Assembly (NCBI GenBank): GCA_012401045.1
Contig: GCA_012401045.1_4704.1
DNA from: a phage
DNA length: 64,000 bases
Direction: 5' to 3' (one strand)
The position numbers were made by a program, and so were the translations under genes. Below, piece after piece: positions 3,714-59,098 of this stretch. The notes under the pieces were generated by a model. That model did not search any database. It had not been told where the DNA came from and saw only the letters and a program-made list of their open reading frames with translations. How positions within the stretch are numbered: the stretch's first letter is position 1; each line of letters opens with the position of its first letter.

Positions 3714-3726
3714 AGCGTCACCGTCG
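3714..3726 (-). CDS. non-virion RNA polymerase beta-prime N fragment, 13-nt micro-exon 2 (completes Phe, encodes Asp-Gly-Asp-Ala)
   Basis: Minus-strand CGACGGUGACGCU. It is the only GAY-GGN-GAY between exon 1 and exon 3. It is complementary to the intron-1 guide sequence CCGUCG (P10). Confidence 0.75.
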
Positions 3727-4103
3727 CTGTTTATCGACTATATCTTCATCCTCGTTGCGAGGAGTCTCCCGTTTTGGTCTGTGTTTAACAGAGCCTACTC
3801 TACTCGACATCGCGTCTTTCGATAGTCTGTGAGCACACATCTTAACAAACATTCGTGGATTCCTAAACAGGTGAATGTTCTTGTTGAGATGCTTCGCTGC
3901 GGATTATTCCCGTCCTACCTCTTTTACCGTACCCAGTTCATTACGCTGGCCCTCATCTATGTCACCACGATGAGTTGGTGTGTAGTCCGATTACAGAAAC
4001 TTCCCGTCAATTAGAGAGCTTTAACTACGTTCCTGTTACCAGAAACCCGACTCCGACGGCATCAATAAATCAACATAAGTTATTGATTTAATTGAAAAAA
4101 CTG
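3727..4103 (-). ncRNA. group I self-splicing intron 1 (ORF-less, 377 nt)
   Basis: Read on the minus strand: P AAUUGACGGGAAG (4012..4000), Q AAUCCGCAGC (3905..3896), R GCUCACAGACUAUCG (3834..3820), S AAGAUAUAGUC (3746..3736). P7 is GACUAU/AUAGUC. The internal guide CCGUCG-GAGUCGG (4059..4047) pairs with the 5' exon end CCGACUU (U.G at the splice site) and with the 3' exon start CGACGG. The intron ends in G (3727). Confidence 0.88.
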
Positions 4104-5359: not shown

Positions 5360-5401
5360 GGGGTATCTCCTACAAATGAAAAAGAACGTTAGGACGTATA
5401 A

Positions 5402-5425
5402 GGGAGGGAGGTTGCCCTCCCTCCC
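5402..5425 (-). terminator. stem-loop after chimallin (probably partial terminator)
   Basis: Perfect 10-bp GGGAGGGAGG-TTGC-CCTCCCTCCC hairpin 27 nt after the chimallin stop. Confidence 0.65.
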
Positions 5426-5451: not shown

Positions 5452-7347
5452 TTAGAACAGATTGAATGCCCCACCCATGTTGTTAACGCCAACATTCGGA
5501 CGATCGCTACGTGCGTAGATGTTACCGGAGATGTTACCCAGACCACGAGCACGTGCTGCCATGTTACCACGAACAGCGGTACCTGCCAGATGCTGGATGT
5601 TCTCAGGACGGATGGTGAAGCCAGCATCAGCAGCGGCTTCGATCAGCGCCTGCAGTGCTAACGGATCGAAGTCGTAACGCATTGCCCAGCCGGTTTGTTC
5701 CCAGCTACCAGACAGAACACGATCGATGATTTCGTGACGAGCGACAACACGCTGAGACATCGTCATATCGGTACGGTCGAAGCTGTCTTCCCAAGCTTCT
5801 ACGGTATCCGGGTTAGTGATGTTCATCATGTACAGATCGTCCATATCACGAATATCGTGACGGTGACCATCCTGGTGGTTGTAGTGACCCAGCGGGATAC
5901 GGTTACCGGTAGCGTAGACCAGCGGTTGGCCGTATTGATATTTCTTGCTGAAGCAACCCAGGGTAACATCATCGAACGCACGGAAGAGGGCTTTGTAACC
6001 TTCGGAGATTTCACGGACTTCACCTTCAACTTTGCCCGTATAGATCTTCTCAGCCGCCGGGATCATACGCAGCAGCCAGCTGTACTCACCTTCTTCCGGT
6101 ACGTCGATAGAAATCAGCAGAGACGGATACAGTACCTGTTGCAGGAACTTGTAAATCTGCTCGTTGGTTTGAGTAGACAGATCCAGCGGTGCGGTAACTT
6201 CCGGATCCAGTACCATCGCCAGAGCACCCGGGTTATGCGGACCAATACCACGGGCAGCGTTGCTGATTAAAGACTGTGCCCACGCCATACCGCTGTTCAG
6301 CGTAGCGATGGTGCCAATCAGACCCAACACGAAAGTGTTCGGTGTGAACGCATCCAGCTCCAGCGGGTAAGCGCTGGTCATCACGTAACGCGGCTGGTAT
6401 TGTACAGTCGGCGGTACCGGATAACCGTTAACCAGAACAGGGCCTTGGTTGAAGGTCGGGTTCTGCGGGCTGTAAGTCAGGTCAATGTAACCGGTGGTGG
6501 CGACCAGACGCTGTTGACTATCGTAATCGCTCATCGCTTGACGGATGCGGTTAGAGATAGTTACAGTGATGTCAGAACGCACAGGGTTACCAACAATATC
6601 GCTGTCCTGCATACCGCTGGTGTTGTACTGAACGCTGCTGATTGGCTGATCGCTTGCCATCATGCCCAGGTTGAACTGCGGCAGACCCAGTTTATCACCG
6701 AGACGGATTTCGATCGCGGTTTGGATTGCGTTATCTGCAGCAGACAGCAGGGTGGTTGCCAGATGCGCAGATTCAGCGGTGATTTCATTGGTCACCACAG
6801 CCAGACCAGCGATACGAACAGTACCGTTAGACTTACCGCCAATAGCTGAGTACATTGCCGCCATGACTTCGTTGATGAACGTACCGTTCAGGTTATCAAC
6901 CCAGGTACGCGGTACCAGAATGTTACCATGCGGACCTTGTTCTTCACGACGCGGCAGCGGAGCCAGACCAGCAACCAGCGGAAGCACATAACCAAAGAAG
7001 TGGTTATGGTCACCAACTTTTGCACCACTCATAACGACCAGGGTCGGATACGGTACGCTGTACTGGTTCGGGTCAACCGCAACAAAGATGAAGTCGTTTT
7101 TGAACTGGGTATCTTCCAGATATTTCTCCATCAGACGACGGAGATTCAGTACCTGCTCGGAGCCAGTATTACGGCTAATACGACGGCTCAGTGTACGGTT
7201 GATCGTACGCATCGTATGAGTTACTTTAGGCTGGCCAGCAAAATCTGCAGCGGTTTCCAGCGCCTCATCAGCACGTTGTGCGGTGCGGGTTTCAGCTGCA
7301 CGAATTTCTACATTATCGTTACCGTTATTACGTACGTCTAAGCCCAT
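5452..7347 (-). CDS. chmA: chimallin, phage nucleus shell protein (631 aa)
   Basis: Size about 70 kDa, strongly biased (highly expressed) codon usage, own early-type promoter motif and terminator. It lies immediately upstream of the nvRNAP beta-prime gene, as phiKZ gp54 does. PhuZ and split RNAPs occur in the same window. Not verified by alignment. Confidence 0.72.
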   Translation of the reverse strand: MGLDVRNNGNDNVEIRAAETRTAQRADEALETAADFAGQPKVTHTMRTINRTLSRRISRNTGSEQVLNLRRLMEKYLEDTQFKNDFIFVAVDPNQYSVPYPTLVVMSGAKVGDHNHFFGYVLPLVAGLAPLPRREEQGPHGNILVPRTWVDNLNGTFINEVMAAMYSAIGGKSNGTVRIAGLAVVTNEITAESAHLATTLLSAADNAIQTAIEIRLGDKLGLPQFNLGMMASDQPISSVQYNTSGMQDSDIVGNPVRSDITVTISNRIRQAMSDYDSQQRLVATTGYIDLTYSPQNPTFNQGPVLVNGYPVPPTVQYQPRYVMTSAYPLELDAFTPNTFVLGLIGTIATLNSGMAWAQSLISNAARGIGPHNPGALAMVLDPEVTAPLDLSTQTNEQIYKFLQQVLYPSLLISIDVPEEGEYSWLLRMIPAAEKIYTGKVEGEVREISEGYKALFRAFDDVTLGCFSKKYQYGQPLVYATGNRIPLGHYNHQDGHRHDIRDMDDLYMMNITNPDTVEAWEDSFDRTDMTMSQRVVARHEIIDRVLSGSWEQTGWAMRYDFDPLALQALIEAAADAGFTIRPENIQHLAGTAVRGNMAARARGLGNISGNIYARSDRPNVGVNNMGGAFNLF

Positions 7348-7410: not shown

Positions 7411-7430
7411 TTCACCTAGGTAATATAACC
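7411..7430 (-). promoter_or_regulatory. early-type promoter motif upstream of chimallin
   Basis: Minus strand reads GGTTATATTACCTAGGTGAA. It lies 73 nt upstream of the chimallin ATG. Confidence 0.6.
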
Positions 7431-7601
7431 CTGAAATTTTTTTCAATATTGGTGTAACCACATTGAACGATATAAACCCCTAGGCGAACGCTGCCGAGAA
7501 GCAACATTCTTTCTACATATAATCAGGATATGTCTGTAAACTTTTACTTCTCTTATTGAGAGTAAAGTCATATCCGTTTACTACCTTCTTACGGAGTTCG
7601 T

Positions 7602-8696
7602 ATGTTTCGTGTTTTAAATAACCTCCCGCGAACATCATCGGGTGTGCAGCCCGTCCCTCAGAAAGACTATCTAATACGCGAAGTTCAAAGAAACCTACAG
7701 ACAATCCAGAACCACTATCAAGGTTTTACCTTCGCGGTTCAGAGCGATCACATCCTTGCGTTACTGCTCGCACAGCTCCCTATGAGATACGACATCTCAG
7801 TACAAACTTACTACGATATGATTCTCGATCTTACTCCAGAATTGGGTAATCGTGTTAAGTTGACAACATCAAGATACGCGGGTAAGTTATTCGACGGTGC
7901 TTTCTATCCGGGATTGCACGAAGCTATTATCGCAACCGGTGAAAGTCGTCTTATTTCACGTGACGTTCTTGACAACTGGCGTAATTGGTCGCCGGTTAGA
8001 ATCGTGACACACCCATACGCAAATCTTCGTTACATTCCTCTTCACCGAAAGCAGGTTGAAGAAGGACGAGGTTTTGCGGTCATTATGGTTGATGTACCTT
8101 TATTAGCACTACAGTATCGAATGTGGTCTTTGGTCATGGGTCATAACGTCGACGGTAAATGGGTGGTTAAAGAACCGGTTACAAGCTTCCTTGCGAGTTT
8201 TCCGTTGGTCAACGCATTATATTCACACAACGATGTTGTTATACGCAATCGTTGTTTGTGGGTATCTCCGGCTAAGAATCCACTCAAATCACCAATTTAC
8301 GTTAACGACCTTGATAACGTATTCAGCCAAGTCGTTCTGTCCGTACAGCATCATTTATTACGAAGAAGACGAAGCTACACCGATATGCTTAAACAGATAC
8401 CGAGTTTATACGGGGATCAGTACCAAGCAACCCGAATGGGTTACACCGTCGATCTTCGACAAACCCGATGGGCAAGGGATCTGGGCTGTCTGTCGTTATG
8501 GCAACAACTCGTCACACTACAAAACGTATCTGAAAGCGTCGGGTTCAGCAGCCAGATCGATAACGACCTGTACCGTGCTGCCGACCGTAGTCTAAAAGAA
8601 GGTAACTGGGAGTCCTCTCCGTTACCTGGCGATTTAAGACGTGAAGTTATCGCACAGGTTGCCGACCTCTTAAAAATTCTTCCCGCTGGTGCATAA
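7602..8696 (+). CDS. hypothetical protein (364 aa)
   Basis: Complete ORF divergent from chimallin. It ends at a long bidirectional hairpin. Confidence 0.6.
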   Translation: MFRVLNNLPRTSSGVQPVPQKDYLIREVQRNLQTIQNHYQGFTFAVQSDHILALLLAQLPMRYDISVQTYYDMILDLTPELGNRVKLTTSRYAGKLFDGAFYPGLHEAIIATGESRLISRDVLDNWRNWSPVRIVTHPYANLRYIPLHRKQVEEGRGFAVIMVDVPLLALQYRMWSLVMGHNVDGKWVVKEPVTSFLASFPLVNALYSHNDVVIRNRCLWVSPAKNPLKSPIYVNDLDNVFSQVVLSVQHHLLRRRRSYTDMLKQIPSLYGDQYQATRMGYTVDLRQTRWARDLGCLSLWQQLVTLQNVSESVGFSSQIDNDLYRAADRSLKEGNWESSPLPGDLRREVIAQVADLLKILPAGA

Positions 8697-8715
8697 TAAC
8701 CTCCCTCCTCCCTTG

Positions 8716-8747
8716 CATCCTCCCAACCCGTAAGGGAAGGGAGGATG
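8716..8747. terminator. bidirectional stem-loop between convergent genes
   Basis: CATCCTCCC..CCC-GTAA-GGG..GGGAGGATG two-tier hairpin. Confidence 0.6.
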
Positions 8748-10977: not shown

Positions 10978-10987
10978 ACGGCATAAA
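10978..10987 (-). promoter_or_regulatory. TTTATGCCGT motif, abutting a terminator hairpin
   Basis: Minus strand reads GGTTCTTTTTTATGCCGTCC. It lies 62 nt upstream of the DNA polymerase start. Confidence 0.45.
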
Positions 10988-10991
10988 AAAG

Positions 10992-11019
10992 AACCGATCC
11001 AGCCGAAGCCAGATCGGTT
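10992..11019 (-). terminator. intrinsic terminator
   Basis: AACCGATC / GATCGGTT stem followed on the minus strand by CTTTTTTAT. Confidence 0.7.
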
Positions 11020-15025: not shown

Positions 15026-15035
15026 ACGGCATAAA
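15026..15035 (-). promoter_or_regulatory. TTTATGCCGT motif, abutting a terminator hairpin
   Basis: Minus strand reads GGCTTTTATGCCGTGTAGGAG. It lies 13 nt upstream of the start at 15013. Confidence 0.45.
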
Positions 15036-15057
15036 AGCCTGCCCCGAAGGACAGGCT
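15036..15057 (-). terminator. intrinsic terminator
   Basis: AGCCTGCC..GACAGGCT hairpin followed by TTTTAT on the minus strand. Confidence 0.6.
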
Positions 15058-15066
15058 CGATAGAAC

Positions 15067-16349: not shown

Positions 16350-17192
16350 ATGGGTGCTATTGACTACAGTGTAGATCGTATCTGTCGTACAATACCGGCA
16401 GATATCCTACAGTATTGCTATATCGATCGTTACGACTGGCGTAATCGCTATCCTCGTTCCGTAGAAGACATCATTACCGATTGGGTAATCCGTAAACGGG
16501 TTATCGGCGACATCGATATCTACGGGGGACTACAAACCGTTATTCCCCTTGATGATGCAGGTGTCACAATCGAAGAAGTCACCATTAACTGTTATGTTTT
16601 CCACATTCCGTTGGAAGCCACACAGGGACGTTATATCACGTCCGCATTATCCATTATTTCAGGGAGCGTGAACAACTACGGAATAAACTATAACGGGCAA
16701 TGGGGCGCTTTCAACCAAACCCAATTTCAACGTCAGCTTTGTGGGTGGAACCCCGCAAGCAACACGTTACAGCAAGGGATGAACGCGTTCGGTCCCATGA
16801 ACGTTCTTAGTACAGCCAACGTTGATATCATCGCCCCTAACACCATCATGGTGAACAACGTCACGCCTGTACAATTTCCCCTGAGCCTACGCTGTTTCCT
16901 TGCCCACGATCCGGAACTTACCAACCTCAGCATGGAGGTTTGGAACGACTTCTACAAACTCTGTTTATACGCCACGCAAAGTGACATCTACAACAGAACC
17001 GTTATCCGTCTCGATAGAGGTGTTACAGCACAAGGACAAGAAGTCGGTGCATTCAAGGAATACATCGATCGCTTTGCTGATGCTGAAAACACATATCAGG
17101 AATTCCTGAACGAAACGTGGGCAGGCGTTGCTGCCTGGAACGATCCGCAAACTAAACGTCGCGCCATTCGACTACAAACCGGTTACTTCTGA
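16350..17192 (+). CDS. hypothetical protein (280 aa)
   Basis: Lone plus-strand ORF with its own terminator (17206..17230). Confidence 0.6.
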   Translation: MGAIDYSVDRICRTIPADILQYCYIDRYDWRNRYPRSVEDIITDWVIRKRVIGDIDIYGGLQTVIPLDDAGVTIEEVTINCYVFHIPLEATQGRYITSALSIISGSVNNYGINYNGQWGAFNQTQFQRQLCGWNPASNTLQQGMNAFGPMNVLSTANVDIIAPNTIMVNNVTPVQFPLSLRCFLAHDPELTNLSMEVWNDFYKLCLYATQSDIYNRTVIRLDRGVTAQGQEVGAFKEYIDRFADAENTYQEFLNETWAGVAAWNDPQTKRRAIRLQTGYF

Positions 17193-17719
17193 TTAACGAC
17201 AGCTTCCTCCCTCGGTGTTTTCGAGGGAGGTATTTGCCGTTTAAACACTTTCAGCACGTTCGCAAATTCAGCGGCAATAATACAGGCCGAGGTTGATAGC
17301 TTATTACTGAAAATGAGATCGTCCGGTAAACAATCGAACTGAATACCGTATTGCGTCTTTGTCTCATCAACGATCAATGACGGTGTCGATCTTGTCTTCG
17401 CGATGTCGGTGATATACAAACGTAGAAATAATTCACCGTCTTCGCTATCCATAAAACGATAGGCGTTACCAGAAAACGCAACACATGGCGTAACGATAAA
17501 TTGAACACGATCGTCGGTCGGATGGATATTTAACCAACGTTCGATATCATTACTACTCACATTTCGCATATTTACTACGGTAAAAGCAAATAGCGTATCG
17601 TGATGTTTGGAATAATGCAGCACGTACGCCGCACCTTTCTTTTTGTGAATCCCTTCAATGTATTCTATTGTCGTATAGCCGGATTTATATAGCTTTACTT
17701 GCGGTTTATCACTCATCAT
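17183..17719 (-). CDS. hypothetical protein (178 aa)
   Basis: Start moved to the ATG at 17719 (MMSDKPQV...), which overlaps the upstream stop (ATGATGA coupling). Confidence 0.55.
   Translation of the reverse strand: MMSDKPQVKLYKSGYTTIEYIEGIHKKKGAAYVLHYSKHHDTLFAFTVVNMRNVSSNDIERWLNIHPTDDRVQFIVTPCVAFSGNAYRFMDSEDGELFLRLYITDIAKTRSTPSLIVDETKTQYGIQFDCLPDDLIFSNKLSTSACIIAAEFANVLKVFKRQIPPSKTPREEAVVNQK
17206..17230 (+). terminator. intrinsic terminator
   Basis: CCTCCCTCG-GTGTTTT-CGAGGGAGG followed by TATTTGCCGTTT. Confidence 0.6.
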
Positions 17720-20255: not shown

Positions 20256-20510
20256 GATAGAAATCCTTAGTATGTTTGATATGTTGTTTAATTAACATAT
20301 TAAGTTTAAAAGAGGTTATGTTTTACGTATTGTTAATAACGTATTCTTATCTCTATTAAGTTATGTTCTATCTAAAGATAGTAAACAGATATAATGCTCC
20401 CCACCTCCCCATTCTCCCAAGTAATACTGGCCTACCGGCTCTCTCCTTTTTAAGGGAGAGAGTAAGCATTCAGTATTGCTCAAATGAATAAGCAAAACAG
20501 TATAAACTTA

Positions 20511-20534
20511 CCGTCTCGAGTTATCTCGAGACGG
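20511..20534 (-). terminator. stem-loop terminator
   Basis: Perfect 10-bp CCGTCTCGAG-TTAT-CTCGAGACGG hairpin 30 nt after the stop at 20564. A second hairpin lies at 20439..20462. Confidence 0.6.
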
Positions 20535-20563
20535 CGTAGTAGTATCTGTTTATCTCTTTTATG

Positions 20564-23399: not shown

Positions 23400-23551
23400 C
23401 AATGTAACGGTAAAACTTTACTGACGTTGGTTATTATTTGAAGCATAGGGCTTCACCCAGGAGTACCATCCCTTTAAGTCGTTTATCCTCTCCTGGTTAA
23501 CTGTCGTTCTCTCACAGTGCTCGACAGACCAAAAATGCTCAGGCCTCATAG

Positions 23552-23580
23552 CCTCCTCTGGGAATGGAACCCAGAGGAGG
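23552..23580. terminator. bidirectional stem-loop between convergent genes
   Basis: 11-bp CCTCCTCTGGG / CCCAGAGGAGG stem. Confidence 0.6.
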
Positions 23581-23592
23581 ACTATGTTTGCC

Positions 23593-31543: not shown

Positions 31544-31553
31544 ACGGCATATA
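31544..31553 (-). promoter_or_regulatory. TATATGCCGT motif
   Basis: Minus strand reads TTCTTATATGCCGTAATAAAGG. It lies 17 nt upstream of the start at 31527. Confidence 0.4.
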
Positions 31554-31601: not shown

Positions 31602-31610
31602 GTTATGCCT
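31602..31610 (+). promoter_or_regulatory. GTTATGCCT motif upstream of the sheath gene
   Basis: Plus strand reads TTTACGTTATGCCTATGAC. It lies 61 nt upstream of the ATG at 31671. Confidence 0.35.
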
Positions 31611-33758: not shown

Positions 33759-34649
33759 ATGCGTCCTGATAATACCCTACTCGGTGAACAGGGTGTTGGT
33801 GCTCTTAGCAACGCGGCTATGGTCGATATTCGTGCAGGTGCCCAAAACGGGTACATCAGCAATATCGGTACGTACGTTGCTAACGCCAACTACATTCCGA
33901 ACCAAATGTTCTGTCTCCTGCTGGAGGCACCACGTGGTTTCAACTATCTACCTAACCCGGATGTACAGATTGGTTATCTGAAGGCGTTGGTAGAAGAAGT
34001 TGCGCATTCGATTACCGGTCTGCAACGCGGATTGGAAGTTGAATTCGTTAGCGTCCCGGTTTCTGGTTCCGGTGAAATCCAGGAAGAAGTCTCTGACGTT
34101 AAACGTCCTCGCTCTAACCCGACTTTCGGGATCTATGAGAAAGAAGGTCGTTCCGTTAGTTACTTCCTGGAACAATGGATCACGTATCTGTTGATGGATC
34201 CGGATGCCAAATACCCGATGTTGTCGTCTATCGTATCCACTGGTGGTCCAACCGACCTGCTGGCGGATTATCGTAGCGCAACAATGCTGTTCGTTGAGCC
34301 AGACCGCCAACACAAAAAAGTGGTTAACGCCTGGCTGTGCACGAACATGATGCCTCACGGTACCGGTGACTGGACATCACGTCGTAACAAGAACGATGCG
34401 CCAAACGTGGTAGAATTGAGCATTCAGTTCACAGCGTTAACACAGACCAACTACGGCGTGCGTGCTTTTGCACAACGTCTGCTGGATAAGATGAACCTGC
34501 TCAAAGTGAACCCGGATTTCCGTCCGGCTTATCTGAGCGACATCGATCCGGCTGTGGCAGCGCAGAAGGTTGGCTACACCTTCGACTTTGATAACAACGA
34601 TACCTTTGAGGTACCGAATACTTATCAAAACGTAACACCTCGCGTGTAA
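33759..34649 (+). CDS. probable tail tube protein (296 aa)
   Basis: Immediately downstream of the putative sheath gene. Strong GAGAGGAG RBS, biased codon usage, strong bidirectional terminator after it. Confidence 0.5.
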   Translation: MRPDNTLLGEQGVGALSNAAMVDIRAGAQNGYISNIGTYVANANYIPNQMFCLLLEAPRGFNYLPNPDVQIGYLKALVEEVAHSITGLQRGLEVEFVSVPVSGSGEIQEEVSDVKRPRSNPTFGIYEKEGRSVSYFLEQWITYLLMDPDAKYPMLSSIVSTGGPTDLLADYRSATMLFVEPDRQHKKVVNAWLCTNMMPHGTGDWTSRRNKNDAPNVVELSIQFTALTQTNYGVRAFAQRLLDKMNLLKVNPDFRPAYLSDIDPAVAAQKVGYTFDFDNNDTFEVPNTYQNVTPRV

Positions 34650-34674
34650 CGTAAAAAAAAAAGCATATTAACCT

Positions 34675-34711
34675 CCCTTCCTTCCCCGGCCTTGACGGCT
34701 AGGGAAGGAAG
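34675..34711. terminator. bidirectional intrinsic terminator
   Basis: 11-bp CCTTCCTTCCC / GGGAAGGAAGG stem plus an inner stem. It is flanked by an A-run on the left and a T-rich run on the right. Confidence 0.75.
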
Positions 34712-34724
34712 GTTTATGGTTTAT

Positions 34725-35677: not shown

Positions 35678-35717
35678 AGCGCTAACCCCAAAGGATAAAA
35701 ATAAAACCTTGACATAA

Positions 35718-35752
35718 CCACCACCGCAACCCCATACAGGGCTACGGTGGGG
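35718..35752 (-). terminator. stem-loop terminator after the 159-aa gene
   Basis: Imperfect CCACCGCAACCCC / GGGCTACGGTGG hairpin. Confidence 0.45.
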
Positions 35753-35780
35753 TCATACAGAGAGACGTGTTAAGTTACAA

Positions 35781-36373: not shown

Positions 36374-36394
36374 TATCAGTTAGGTAATATAGAC
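36374..36394 (-). promoter_or_regulatory. early-type promoter motif
   Basis: Minus strand reads GTCTATATTACCTAACTGATA. It lies 124 nt upstream of the start at 36260. Confidence 0.55.
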
Positions 36395-36395
36395 C

Positions 36396-37196
36396 TCAAC
36401 TTTTTTCCAATAATGCTGCAACGTTCCGCGCGAAACGAATTACCTTGTAATTGCGGGTCTGTTTGATATCTTCTTCCCCATCACTGTCACCTTCAGACGG
36501 ATCTTCCCACATGAAGTCTTGTTCGTCCGCTTTCTGTAAGTAGCGGTATAACTGCACCATGCTGCGTGCGGTCGGAGAGATAGCGCGAAGCTCATCCAAT
36601 TCTTCATCCGTGAGCAGAACATGCGGTGAACGCAGTGGTTCCATTGTTGTATTACACAACAGACGAATCAGCAGATCGACGCACGGAATAACCGAACCTG
36701 GTGAGGCGATTTCTGGGTGTAATGTATAACCCCAATATACGGTGTTAAAATACGTCAAAACAGCAGGTAGTGACGGATGTTCCATCGCACGGCCAATTTG
36801 CTGTCTTACGATAGATGCACGATCGTTCAATACATCGAAAGTAATCTGCTGCGGTTCCATAACCGCAAGTGAAATACCGTATGCGTCAGCCACACCCAGG
36901 ATTTCATGAAGGGCCGAACGTTCTTCTTCGGTGGATATTGTCCCGATTGCCTTACGCCCTGCAAGGTCAATCAGCATCGGTGAAACAGCTTCTTTAACCG
37001 CATTAAAAGAAGCCTGGTAAGCGTGTTTGTGAATATACAGTGTCCACGCTAATGCGCGCTCAGCCGCATGAAGCAGATCGACATAAGACAGTTCTTGATG
37101 GCATGGGCCATACACACTCACAGCAAGCTTGGTGGCTTTCTCAGAGGCTTGCATAATAACATCTGGTGATTTAGGCATATCGCGTTCTTCTTGCAT
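36396..37196 (-). CDS. hypothetical protein (266 aa)
   Basis: Complete ORF. An alternative start is MPKSPDV at 37178. Confidence 0.55.
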   Translation of the reverse strand: MQEERDMPKSPDVIMQASEKATKLAVSVYGPCHQELSYVDLLHAAERALAWTLYIHKHAYQASFNAVKEAVSPMLIDLAGRKAIGTISTEEERSALHEILGVADAYGISLAVMEPQQITFDVLNDRASIVRQQIGRAMEHPSLPAVLTYFNTVYWGYTLHPEIASPGSVIPCVDLLIRLLCNTTMEPLRSPHVLLTDEELDELRAISPTARSMVQLYRYLQKADEQDFMWEDPSEGDSDGEEDIKQTRNYKVIRFARNVAALLEKS

Positions 37197-37284: not shown

Positions 37285-37294
37285 ACGGCATAAA
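37285..37294 (-). promoter_or_regulatory. TTTATGCCGT motif, abutting a terminator hairpin
   Basis: Minus strand reads GGTACTTTTTATGCCGTCATTT. It lies 89 nt upstream of the start at 37196. Confidence 0.45.
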
Positions 37295-37299
37295 AAGTA

Positions 37300-37325
37300 C
37301 CTCCTTACCCATGTGGGTAAGGAGG
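37300..37325 (-). terminator. intrinsic terminator
   Basis: CCTCCTTACCC / GGGTAAGGAGG stem followed on the minus strand by TACTTTTTAT. Confidence 0.7.
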
Positions 37326-37478
37326 TTCGTCCATCACGACGAAAGGACGTTATGTGACGCGGTGTCCATAACGGCCCTGGTAGCAGGCATCAAAGATAAC
37401 AAAAAGGATGTAAGTTGAGCTAAACCACCTAAATACGGTAACGATTACTTCCGTACACAATATAACGCAACATCTTTT

Positions 37479-41567: not shown

Positions 41568-41642
41568 TCACTTTTCCTTTTAATGTCAGAGCATCGCATT
41601 CTTGACGTACGTCAAGAAGGTACTGCGTTCAGCGAAATAAAC

Positions 41643-41668
41643 GAGCAGGGGCATGAAGCCCCCTGCTC
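41643..41668 (-). terminator. intrinsic terminator after vRNAP beta
   Basis: GAGCAGGGGC / GCCCCCTGCTC stem followed on the minus strand by GTTTATTT. Confidence 0.65.
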
Positions 41669-46018: not shown

Positions 46019-47665
46019 TTAGGCTCCACGAGGTCCCGTTAAGTTGCGTAATAGGAACGCAACCGTATCGTAACCAATATCGATGTTGAATTTATTTTTA
46101 CCACTTACCCAGAAAGCTCGCTTCTTGTGCGAGTTGGTAATTTCGTCAATAGCTTCCATGGAATAAAGAACGTTAACCGAGACCGTATCACCATCAAAGT
46201 CCCCACCAAGTCCGGCGAGGTATGGCGCAGGGACAATAGTCGTTTCTACGAACGAAGCATTAGGTAACCAGTCGGGGTATTCCCATGCGATAAATCGTTC
46301 ATCCGTTATTGGTTCCCAGTTACTATCCAGTTCGGTTTTCGGTTTTGCGGCGACGGTTGTACGTGCGTAACAGGTTAACGGGATAACGGATTGCATACCT
46401 GATACCGGATAACGTGTTACCATCGCAGCCAGGTTATTCCAGTACTTATATCCGGCAATATAGATAAGCTCGGTGTAAGTAATGGGGTGAACATCCGCGC
46501 CAGGTTTATTCAACATCTCCGGGGGTAATTCACTCATGCCACGGAATAACCGAAACGAATCGTTGTTCACATAGACGAGGCAAAGATATCGTCCATTGAC
46601 CATGATAGGCTCGTTACGCACGCCAGGATCGCTTAAGGTGTTCAGTAAACGTTCTATTCCGTCCCATGTTGTAAAGTCATCGATGGTGTCTGGATCAAGC
46701 GTGACGCGCTCACGTTCCATCGTTTCGGTATCAGTAAGTTCAACTTCTGTAACATCACGGACAAATATTTCCTGCAAAATACCGGTACGTAACGCATGTT
46801 GCGTTACTGGGAGAGCGGCTTTACTCATCTGGTATAACCCTAACTGAACCGCGGTACAGGAAGGCTGGTTAGGCGACCCTAATACCTCCGTTGTGGGGTT
46901 AATTGCCGAAATAACGTTACGGGTTGAGTTCCAAACGCGACGTGAACCAAACTTACCTTGGAAGATCCCTTTCTTACCCTGGAACATATCCAACAGTAAA
47001 GCGTAGATATCGTTGAATGTTCTCTGTAAGCTCCAGCGCTGGCCGTCGTAAACGGGATCGGAATAATCTTTTAATCCATCAGGGACGGTGTTAGAAATTG
47101 CAAGGAAACGACGATACAACTCCGTGATTTCTTGCTCGCTTTCATACCCACCTTCTTTTACTTCTATTTCACGTAAGCCTGCAGGCAATACCAGTAAGTG
47201 ACGGGTCATCGCTTTGAACATGTTCTCTTCGACAACTTTAATTCGTAGCTCTCGTTGAGCTGAACCCGTTGAAACGAACTTGATATCCGCGACGTGTTGT
47301 GCAAAGAACCCGTATCCTGTTTGTCCTGTTAATGCATCAGACGCAACGAAGTCGCGTTGTTCGGGATCCCACCGAGCGTACGCCTTCCCCGACATGATAT
47401 CGCCATAGAGGTGTTTTAATCGAATGAGACGGTCGTAAATGACAGGATGCAGGATTTCAACCTTGCATTCAATCACCGCAAATCGACGGTCTCGATCTTC
47501 ACTACCCGCACTACCAAAGATGGTGTAAGAATAGAAACCATCATCGTGGAAATTACCGGTGCTTGGGTCACGAATGCTCATGCTCGTGATCTTGGGGAGA
47601 AAACGTAACTGCTGTTTATCGAGGTGTAAAATACTAATATTAAACGGCTCTCTGACTTTAGCCAT
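46019..47665 (-). CDS. virion RNA polymerase beta-prime subunit, N-terminal fragment (548 aa, phiKZ gp180-like)
   Basis: RRFAVIECKVEILHPV resembles RMGHIELAAPVAHIW. An intact catalytic GGDFDGDTVSVNV is present. Start set at the ATG at 47665, 8 nt after an AAAGAGGAG RBS. Confidence 0.85.
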   Translation of the reverse strand: MAKVREPFNISILHLDKQQLRFLPKITSMSIRDPSTGNFHDDGFYSYTIFGSAGSEDRDRRFAVIECKVEILHPVIYDRLIRLKHLYGDIMSGKAYARWDPEQRDFVASDALTGQTGYGFFAQHVADIKFVSTGSAQRELRIKVVEENMFKAMTRHLLVLPAGLREIEVKEGGYESEQEITELYRRFLAISNTVPDGLKDYSDPVYDGQRWSLQRTFNDIYALLLDMFQGKKGIFQGKFGSRRVWNSTRNVISAINPTTEVLGSPNQPSCTAVQLGLYQMSKAALPVTQHALRTGILQEIFVRDVTEVELTDTETMERERVTLDPDTIDDFTTWDGIERLLNTLSDPGVRNEPIMVNGRYLCLVYVNNDSFRLFRGMSELPPEMLNKPGADVHPITYTELIYIAGYKYWNNLAAMVTRYPVSGMQSVIPLTCYARTTVAAKPKTELDSNWEPITDERFIAWEYPDWLPNASFVETTIVPAPYLAGLGGDFDGDTVSVNVLYSMEAIDEITNSHKKRAFWVSGKNKFNIDIGYDTVAFLLRNLTGPRGA

Positions 47666-47910
47666 GGAGACACTCCTCTTTACCACCACCGGCTGCGGCG
47701 GTATCATCTGAACACACGAGAGACGTAATGGGTGATGGCGTCACCCATCGCTTCCTTGCTTGAGGCGAGGAAGTTATTAGGTTACGTACCTGCCTGATTT
47801 TATCAGGTGGGCGATGTGTGAAGTTACGCTTCAACATTATCAATGCCGAAGGTAAACTTCGTGCATCACGTTCCAACGTAACATGGGAACGTATCGAACT
47901 GGAGGTATAC

Positions 47911-56767: not shown

Positions 56768-56780
56768 TATTCACCGCATA

Positions 56781-56818
56781 AACCCCTCTCCCTTCCCTGA
56801 TGGGTTGGGAGAGGGGTT
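56781..56818. terminator. bidirectional stem-loop between convergent genes
   Basis: 12-bp AACCCCTCTCCC / GGGAGAGGGGTT stem with an inner CCC-TGAT-GGG stem. Confidence 0.65.
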
Positions 56819-56821
56819 ATG

Positions 56822-57918: not shown

Positions 57919-57928
57919 ACGGCATAAA
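57919..57928 (-). promoter_or_regulatory. TTTATGCCGT motif, abutting a terminator hairpin
   Basis: Minus strand reads GGTAGGCTTTATGCCGTATTTC. It lies 30 nt upstream of the start at 57889. Confidence 0.45.
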
Positions 57929-57955
57929 GCCTACCCACACAATGGTGGGTAGGCT
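57928..57955 (-). terminator. intrinsic terminator
   Basis: 11-bp AGCCTACCCAC / GTGGGTAGGCT stem followed by TTTATGCCGTATTTCTTTTTT on the minus strand. Confidence 0.7.
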
Positions 57956-59077: not shown

Positions 59078-59098
59078 CATCATGAAGGTAATATAGTC
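59078..59098 (-). promoter_or_regulatory. early-type promoter motif
   Basis: Minus strand reads GACTATATTACCTTCATGATG. It lies 92 nt upstream of the start at 58996. Confidence 0.55.

Follow-up and report, generated by a model that had tools for sequence, protein, structure and literature searches.

In a 64,000-nt stretch of phage DNA (NCBI GenBank assembly GCA_012401045.1, contig GCA_012401045.1_4704.1; hereafter the window), the minus strand at positions 57919-57955 carries a hairpin, AGCCTACCCACcattgtGTGGGTAGGCT (57928-57955; folding free energy, dG, -21.5), directly followed by the box TTATGCCGT (57919-57927). The same box stands behind other hairpins of the window, and the locus raises the question of what a conserved sequence does at such a place. 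A preliminary description of the window had proposed that the U-tract of the terminator may double as the upstream part of the next promoter, with an RNA processing site as the alternative. Here we report that the box is very probably, by analogy with phage phiKZ, the 3' half of the intrinsic terminator used by phiKZ-like nucleus-forming jumbo phages (chimalliviruses).

A piece of about 4 kb around the flagged module is 97.3% identical to Escherichia phage vB_EcoM_Goslar (hereafter Goslar), and the whole window was aligned to Goslar positions 164488-231600 at about 97-98% identity. The open reading frame (ORF) at 5452-7347 on the minus strand corresponds to the Goslar chimallin, which has distant homologues in about 100 phiKZ-like phages; together, the chimallin and the identity to Goslar identify the source, by sequence, as a nucleus-forming jumbo phage (Chimalliviridae) and a relative of Goslar. 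Chimalliviridae transcribe their own genomes with virion and non-virion multisubunit RNA polymerases, and RNA polymerase subunit genes are annotated in the Goslar region homologous to the window. The full annotated Goslar genome (247 coding sequences, 92.9% coding) was used for genome-wide tests. The relatives retrieved using the gene beside the flagged module were all 99% identical and provided no orthologous intergenic regions at useful divergence. An Rfam scan of the whole window at gathering thresholds matched no family.

The recurrence of the TTTATGCCGT box after hairpins is real, and all copies quoted in the preliminary description were found at the coordinates given there. Perfect boxes preceded by a hairpin lie at 2430-2438, 10978-10986, 15026-15034, 37285-37293 and 57919-57927, all on the minus strand. 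The hairpin-less copy TATATGCCGT (31544-31553, minus strand) and the plus-strand copy GTTATGCCT (31602-31610) were also confirmed, the distances of 13-89 nt quoted from box to next start codon are correct, and CTTATACGTCC, described as a degenerate relative near the chimallin gene, follows a hairpin downstream of that gene (5393-5425) and belongs to the box family. The list of copies, although accurate, was incomplete: degenerate matching (2-3 mismatches plus an upstream hairpin) gives about 15 hairpin-box modules in the window, and Goslar has about 40. Their consensus is a hairpin followed by TTATGCYGT (Y, pyrimidine), and the five flagged boxes are the perfect-match subset. The sequence TTATGCCG occurs 8 times in the window, against 2.15 copies expected, and none of 100 shuffles reached 8. 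Five of the 8 copies are intergenic and preceded by a hairpin, in a genome only about 7% non-coding (P=8e-5). The comparison of intergenic with coding sequence that had been suggested as a check gave the same picture in the full Goslar genome, where 10 of 16 copies are intergenic (P=2e-8).

The five flagged modules have stems that are unrelated in sequence and a tail that is identical; their hairpins fold at dG values of -18 to -24 kcal/mol. Hairpins were called at an energy cut-off of -14 kcal/mol, since -8 kcal/mol let through 266 'hits' that were for the most part coding background. Many Goslar stems are of the form CCCTCC.../...GGAGGG. The box is conserved beyond an ordinary U-tract, TTATGCYGT being retained after differing stems. 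In the Goslar census, which took sites with at most 2 mismatches from TTATGCCGT, the counts per box position (n=40) were T2 39, A3 39, T4 40, G5 34, C6 32, Y7 37, G8 39 and T9 31; this matrix overstates conservation because the sites were pre-selected by likeness to TTATGCCGT, but the C-C/T-G-T after TATG was confirmed independently when TATG alone was required. The fifth base of the box is A, C or T in 6 of the 40 Goslar modules and TATG is present in 34, while all five flagged copies have TATG. Where the window was compared with Goslar, the boxes do not differ and the changes are confined to loops, stems and flanks, although the comparison is underpowered (at most one substitution in 117 nt at 2.6% divergence, P=0.19).

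The spacing of the modules relates the box to the gene upstream. In Goslar, a gap of 0-3 nt separates stem and box in 32 of 40 modules, and in 32 of 37 modules the box lies 24-58 nt past the stop codon of the co-oriented gene upstream. The next co-oriented start codon, in contrast, may be anywhere between -7 and 241 nt from the box, and for 11 of the 40 modules, which are convergent, no co-oriented gene follows at all. Among the 16 Goslar convergent intergenic regions with a gap, 13 contain a strong hairpin with a plus-strand TATG within a few bases (P=1e-17 against background), and many convergent regions bear CATAA on the other side, that is, a minus-strand TTATG; examples in the window are 56773-56821 and 23543-23586. 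Because the gap to the hairpin is fixed, the gap to the next start variable and some copies convergent, the tail belongs to the hairpin, and the box marks the end of the upstream transcript rather than the beginning of the next gene. The flagged module itself lies 44 nt past the upstream stop codon and 29 nt ahead of the next start, and is identical in Goslar.

An element of this kind has been mapped in related phages. In phiKZ, most of the intrinsic terminators mapped by ONT-cappable-seq (61 regions) share the motif BCCYCCCCHWWDGGGRRGGBYTTATKYYGT (E=1.7e-212; Putzeys 2024, microLife; PMC10914365), which is classed as factor-independent by ARNold (PMC10914365), and the same motif (motif A) is present at 59 termination sites of phage 201phi2-1 (PMC11512511). 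As TTATGCCGT is an exact instance of TTATKYYGT (K, G or T) and many Goslar stems are of the CCCTCC/GGAGGG type, the module is the Goslar-lineage version of the published motif. The earlier view that the hairpins are terminators is upheld. The premise that ATGCCGT is not needed for termination, in contrast, was an assumption, and the same extension sits in the published phiKZ motif. The papers on Goslar ChmC and on the Goslar virion structure contain no transcript mapping or terminator motif, and a Klebsiella jumbo-phage genome paper contributes nothing relevant.

The mapped phiKZ transcript ends place the box more precisely. Start sites (Table S3) and termination sites (Table S4) were taken from the bioRxiv version of the phiKZ study and placed on two 50-kb genome stretches. 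Over these 100 kb, 26 of 46 termination sites adjoin a TTAT-type box, with 3' ends at offsets of -1 (7 sites), +1 (7), +2 (5), -3 (4), +3 (1), -4 (1) and -6 (1) from the fifth box base G. The RNA 3' ends therefore fall inside TTAT-G-Y-Y, 7-9 nt past the stem, which is the spacing expected for intrinsic termination, and none of the 55 start sites on the same stretches is located at a terminator box. In the phiKZ region 100-150 kb, 7 of 29 modules composed of a hairpin and TAT(G/T) have a mapped 3' end within 3 nt, and 0 of 29 have a start site within 3 nt. Promoters often follow the phiKZ terminators as separate elements 10-45 nt further downstream: P001, P017 and P028 are early promoters (TATATTAC) about 40 nt past boxes, and the late TATG start sites P054 and P016 lie 21 nt and 26 nt past boxes, respectively. 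The closest spacing is that of P049 and P075, which start at a second TATG 5-10 nt past the box. In phiKZ, the nearest relative for which there are experiments, the box is thus a site of transcript ends and not of transcript starts.

The same tail was found in other chimalliviruses by a scan that took strong perfect hairpins regardless of annotation, in stretches sampled from each genome, and required only TATG within about 12 nt past the stem. Hairpin ends with TATG numbered 24 of 189 in Goslar (P 7e-9), 20 of 49 and 18 of 50 in two stretches of phiKZ (P 1e-13 and 6e-11), 10 of 53 in Erwinia phage RAY (P 1e-5), 13 of 57 in Klebsiella phage Eowyn (P 7e-8), 6 of 38 in Ralstonia phage RSL2 (P 2e-4), 10 of 83 in Xanthomonas phage RTH11 (P 1e-7), 14 of 38 in Proteus phage 10 (P 1e-9) and 4 of 52 in Ralstonia phage RP12 (P 9e-3), an enrichment of 4-10 fold across these phages. 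The G of TATG is mostly 5-6 nt past the stem, and the bases behind TATG, which were not selected for, read C-C-G(-T) in the phages of enterobacteria, Proteus and Xanthomonas, as against T/C-T/C-G-T in phiKZ. There was no enrichment in 50 kb of Escherichia coli K-12 (2 of 77 hairpin ends, P=0.63), and TATG followed none of 15 hairpins in 50 kb of phage T4 and none of 15 in the distant Bacillus phage AgentSmith. This distribution makes the tail a lineage-specific signal of Gram-negative chimalliviruses; as judged from the genomes sampled, it is kept at G+C contents of 38-57% and is not a property of host terminators.

How the tail might work can be outlined from these data. Each module combines a GC-rich hairpin, its 5' arm usually rich in C and its 3' arm in G, with a short (Y)UUAU and the sequence G-C-Y-G-U, and by homology with phiKZ the RNA would end within UUAU-G-Y-Y, 7-9 nt past the stem. 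If the RNA ends at or just past the box G, most of GCYGT lies outside the released transcript and must act via the DNA in the polymerase complex or at the incoming-nucleotide step. The U-tract would be too short to stall the enzyme unaided. Instead, the Y-G step and the G-rich bases 10-11 nt upstream, in the 3' arm of the stem, may constitute a sequence-programmed pause, which would keep the phage polymerase at the correct distance from the hairpin for release and make up for the shortness of the U-tract where, as in this compartment, host termination factors are lacking. The tail is thus likely to be a pause or release element for the phage RNA polymerases, and the promoters of the following genes, where present, would be distinct elements further downstream. 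The consensus elemental pause of multisubunit RNA polymerases is G-10Y-1G+1 (PMC9291695, PMC6336406). With box G8 as +1, the Goslar modules (n=40) have Y-1 in 37, G+1 in 39, G-10 in 23 and G-11 in 29 cases; Y-1 and G+1 are box positions that were partly selected by the census, and G-10 and G-11, which the G-rich 3' arm supplies, are unselected.

Several points weigh against the terminator reading or its details. In Goslar and in the window phage, the assignment rests on homology to phiKZ and 201phi2-1. The phiKZ start-site data cover promoters P001-P126, with exact mapping over 100 kb of the genome, and ends determined by ONT-cappable-seq are accurate to about 2 nt. The G-10Y-1G+1 pause was defined for cellular polymerases, from which the phage enzymes are very divergent, and G-10 is present in only 23 of the 40 modules. 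Finally, between several modules, such as those at 15026 and 57919, and the next start there are only 12-29 nt and no other promoter can be recognised, so that the gene downstream needs either read-through or initiation at the box.

A more speculative form of the terminator reading, which we regard as unlikely, makes the box a polymerase-specific termination code: the phage RNA polymerases would read TATG(CYG) on the non-template strand during elongation, stall 5-8 nt past the hairpin and release the transcript. The non-virion RNA polymerase (nvRNAP) might use for this the beta-lobe pocket that recognises the TATG of late promoters at -3 to +1, in which case a single recognition module would serve initiation and termination, and immediate re-initiation would be possible at tight tandem genes. 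In phiKZ, the non-template TATG at -3 to +1 is bound in a pocket of the beta-like nvRNAP subunit GP123, and this pocket is described as incomplete in the transcribing complex (PMC12809450). The register would fit capture by GP123, but the same tail must also work for the virion enzyme. A comparison of phiKZ GP123 with the window ORF at 46019-47707 found no similarity, which makes this ORF a different polymerase subunit.

The same tetranucleotide is the basis for the proposal that terminator and promoter are fused, with the box TATG acting as an nvRNAP late promoter (G=+1) at which transcription restarts straight after termination. The phiKZ late-promoter element had been identified correctly: it has a TATG core whose G is the +1 position, activity in vitro requires all four of its bases, and nothing is conserved past it (PMC4666361). 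The two elements also share the non-template strand and an active-site register, the mapped phiKZ RNA 3' ends being in the same register as TATG; some genes of the window begin 13-29 nt past a box without another obvious promoter; in a divergent region, a structural gene begins 14 nt past the hairpin-less TATATGCCGT; and the second TATG used by P049 and P075 lies only 5-10 nt past a terminator box. We nevertheless consider a fused promoter quite improbable. The mapped phiKZ start sites (0 of 55) do not coincide with the boxes, whereas 3' ends do, and the box is equally present where there is no co-oriented gene to be transcribed (11 of 40 modules; 13 of 16 convergent regions, some with copies on both strands). 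Any change in TATG abolishes promoter activity, yet 6 of the 40 Goslar boxes carry A, C or T as the fifth base, which in phiKZ is K. The spacing of the box is fixed to the hairpin, which a late promoter does not require, and not to the start codon, and GCYGT is conserved in the boxes although phiKZ late promoters are unconserved past TATG. Counts of TATG in the divergent intergenic regions of Goslar were uninformative, as the motif is too short. The conservation of the box is explained by the terminator role, and the claim that it is the promoter of the next gene is not supported as the reason; a secondary promoter role may exist at some tandem sites in the window phage (15026, 57919). The copy without a hairpin, TATATGCCGT (31544-31553, minus strand), which precedes the start of a virion-protein gene by 14 nt in a divergent region, is not a terminator and may be a late promoter; it is the only copy positioned like a phiKZ-type late promoter (TATG, G=+1).

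Three further explanations concern the RNA, the ribosome and the history of the copies. An RNA-level element, at which read-through transcripts would be processed or bound, for instance by an endoribonuclease or by a phage RNA-binding protein like ChmC, would be in keeping with the single-stranded AU-rich stretch beside a hairpin, a common context of nuclease action. The phiKZ 3' ends, however, are inside the box at 7-9 nt past the stem, the canonical distance for intrinsic termination, the terminated RNA lacks most of GCYGT, ARNold places the motif among the factor-independent ones (PMC10914365), and crosslinking and immunoprecipitation (eCLIP) of ChmC gave no sequence motif and a binding peak near start codons. 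Such an element is therefore very unlikely, and the processing site suggested in the preliminary description finds no support. The possibility that the boxes are conserved only through recent copying of hairpin and box as a duplicated or mobile cassette draws on a subset of CCCTCCTCCAACCCGTAAGGGAAGGAGGAGGG-like hairpins that are nearly identical at many Goslar loci; it is extremely doubtful, as the five flagged modules combine unrelated stems with the same box, and the same box follows unrelated hairpins in genera of 38-57% G+C. Finally, the G-rich 3' arm is GGAGG-like and, placed 4-6 nt ahead of ATG, looks like a Shine-Dalgarno sequence, so that together with TTATG it could provide the next gene, or a small ORF, with a ribosome-binding site and a start codon; the box ATG is in fact the annotated start of four Goslar genes and of window ORF 1600-2436. 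Against this, ORFs that begin at this ATG are a median of 17 codons long, on which ground the box was rejected as a start codon, and long ones arise only by an accidental frame shared with the next gene. A better ATG preceded by a Shine-Dalgarno sequence is located further downstream in those genes, 7 of the 40 boxes have no ATG, the box is also found in convergent regions, and the Shine-Dalgarno-like arm is sequestered in the stem. The probability of a translation signal is close to nil.

The remaining members of the perfect-match set are all on the minus strand. At 37285-37326, the hairpin ACCTCCTTACCCacatGGGTAAGGAGGT (37299-37326; dG -22.8) is separated from the box TTATGCCGT (37285-37293) by the spacer ACTTT, and at 10978-11019 the hairpin AACCGATCTGGCttcgGCTGGATCGGTT (10992-11019) is separated from TTATGCCGT (10978-10986) by CTTTT; the latter is annotated as a terminator in Goslar. 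At 15026-15058, the hairpin GAGCCTGTCCttcgGGGCAGGCTT (15035-15058; dG -21.4) precedes TTATGCCGT (15026-15034); the next start is about 13 nt downstream, and the Goslar annotation is that of a putative terminator. The module at 2430-2465 consists of the hairpin ACCCTCCCTGCataagGCGGGGAGGGT (2439-2465; dG -23.6) and the box TTATGCCGC (2430-2438).

The degenerate modules are found on both strands. Downstream of the chimallin gene, the minus-strand module at 5393-5425 consists of the hairpin GGGAGGGAGGgcaaCCTCCCTCCC (5402-5425) and TTATACGTC (5393-5401). A minus-strand module in a divergent intergenic region (7467-7517) has a hairpin and TTATATCGT, and is located upstream of the early-promoter-like TATATTAC (7420-7427) that precedes chimallin. 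A weaker one in a convergent intergenic region (8688-8739, minus strand) has a hairpin and then TTATGCACC, and its box overlaps the end of a plus-strand gene. On the plus strand, the gene at 16350-17192 is followed by a convergent module (17206-17240) with the hairpin CCTCCCTCGgtgttttCGAGGGAGG and ATTTGCCGT and no plus-strand gene downstream, and the gene at 33759-34649 by a convergent module (34676-34722) with a hairpin and TTATGGTTT. The minus-strand modules at 20497-20540 and 35709-35753 have a hairpin followed by TTATACTGT and TTATGTCAA, respectively; the fifth base of the former is A, which is incompatible with a TATG promoter. After the gene for the 1448-amino-acid RNA polymerase subunit, the module at 41632-41668 (minus strand) comprises the hairpin GAGCAGGGGgcttcatgCCCCTGCTC, the spacer GT and TTATTTCGC, and is annotated as a terminator in Goslar. 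Two modules between convergent genes are bidirectional. At 23543-23586, the hairpin CCTCCTCTGGGaatggaaCCCAGAGGAGG (23552-23580) has plus-strand ACTATG on one side (TATG 23583-23586) and minus-strand CTATGAGGC (23543-23551) on the other; at 56773-56821, the hairpin (56782-56817) has the minus-strand box TTATGCGGT (56773-56781), and the plus-strand TTATG (56817-56821) directly adjoins the stop codon of the gene on the minus strand.

Some further observations concern the hairpins. At 972-1007 on the minus strand, a 16-pair hairpin is followed by CCATTCTTTTTTATTTTTG, a classical terminator with a long U-tract and without the GCYGT tail, so that two terminator styles coexist in the window phage. 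In three hairpins (20497-20540, 34676-34722 and 35709-35753), the apical loop and inner stem are reverse-complemented relative to their Goslar counterparts (186033-186106, 200214-200290 and 201247-201321), and the outer stem and box are unchanged; in the alignment, these apical changes look like flip-inversion at palindromes. The Goslar convergent regions at 36814, 48081, 146585 and 200200 (the last equivalent to window positions around 34650-34675) have a run of 9-13 A on the plus strand just upstream of the hairpin, which on the minus strand gives a hairpin, then the box-like ATATGC, then a long T run. Both ends of the Goslar record (27-33 and 237279-237285) bear TATGCCGTCAAGC and then a poly-A run, and the hairpin and box at the right end run on into the left end, which suggests that the linear record was cut inside or beside a terminator module, or that there is a short terminal duplication.

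Other observations concern gene starts, promoters and introns. Besides window ORF 1600-2436, the starts of Goslar genes 47, 111, 167 and 183 are at a box ATG. The window ORF has an in-frame ATG with a preceding GAGGA 39 nt downstream of the box ATG, and such starts are probably annotation artefacts of choosing the longest ORF. The extended motif TTTTCACGGCTATATTACTTAnGTGA has eight intergenic copies in Goslar (2567, 113797, 142800, 160791, 166069, 172978, 201944 and 226695); the window positions, all on the minus strand, are 1574-1581, 7420-7427, 36384-36391 and 59088-59095, and one copy lies upstream of chimallin. Its core, TATATTAC, is the phiKZ early-promoter core of the published start-site table, and the copies are likely to be virion-RNA-polymerase (early) promoters of the Goslar lineage. 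Two Goslar segments (168217-169281 and 211748-213798) are absent from the window phage at about 3728-3731 and 46192-46200. One contains a NUMOD1/HNH endonuclease gene beside an annotated group I intron in a beta-prime-like gene, and the other a second annotated group I intron and gp230, between two RNA-polymerase subunit ORFs; by alignment, these differences represent a presence/absence polymorphism of intron and homing-endonuclease elements. Goslar also carries an 'Intron_gpI' RNA annotation in the region matching window positions 3718-4094 (approximately), where the Rfam scan gave nothing.

The module allows transcript boundaries to be placed from sequence alone, about 15 in the window and about 40 in Goslar. 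Owing to their short U-tract, most of these modules escape generic terminator finders: a scan for at least 5 T in 8 positions detected only one of the five flagged modules (10978-11019). Several Goslar gene starts at a box ATG are probably wrong. The conservation of TTATGCYGT after unrelated hairpins across chimalliviruses, but not in their hosts, points to a termination signal that is read by the phage polymerases, which work inside the phage nucleus without host factors. We found no explanation for the conservation of the tail in the literature on terminators of the phiKZ/201phi2-1 type, and the match of the tail to the late-promoter TATG in sequence and register provides a concrete hypothesis that is testable in vitro.

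Compared with known systems, the module shares single features with several and most with one. The class II pause and termination signal of T7 RNA polymerase is sequence-specific, is used by a single-subunit enzyme and needs no hairpin; as in the present case, a phage polymerase reads a short conserved DNA sequence as a pause or termination signal, but the sequence is unrelated. With the G-10Y-1G+1 elemental pause, the Goslar modules have in common Y-1, G+1 and G-rich positions -10/-11, whereas the TTAT part is outside that consensus. Canonical Rho-independent terminators likewise combine a GC-rich hairpin with a U-rich stretch and release 7-9 nt past the stem; the U-tract in the window, however, is just UUAU or UUUAU (typically TTTAT, then GCCGT) and falls short of the usual 7-8 nt, a specific downstream sequence is conserved in the chimallivirus modules, and the signature is not enriched in E. 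coli or T4. The terminator of phiKZ and 201phi2-1 has nearly the same sequence as the window module, a C-rich/G-rich stem-loop followed by (B)YTTATKYYGT; it is placed just past stop codons, is often bidirectional between convergent genes, and belongs to phages that encode chimallin and their own multisubunit RNA polymerases. It differs in that the tail of the AT-rich phiKZ is G-T/C-T/C-G-T and that of the Goslar-like, enterobacterial, Xanthomonas and Proteus phages the stricter G-C-C/T-G-T, and in that the stems of the window phage are longer and more varied; termination in the window phage is deduced from sequence, and the phiKZ ends are mapped. In stem-loop, tail, location at gene ends including bidirectional copies, and a genome with chimallin and polymerase genes, the window modules agree with the phiKZ-type terminator. 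The kind of element is therefore already known from the published phiKZ terminator, and what is new here is its version in the Goslar lineage.

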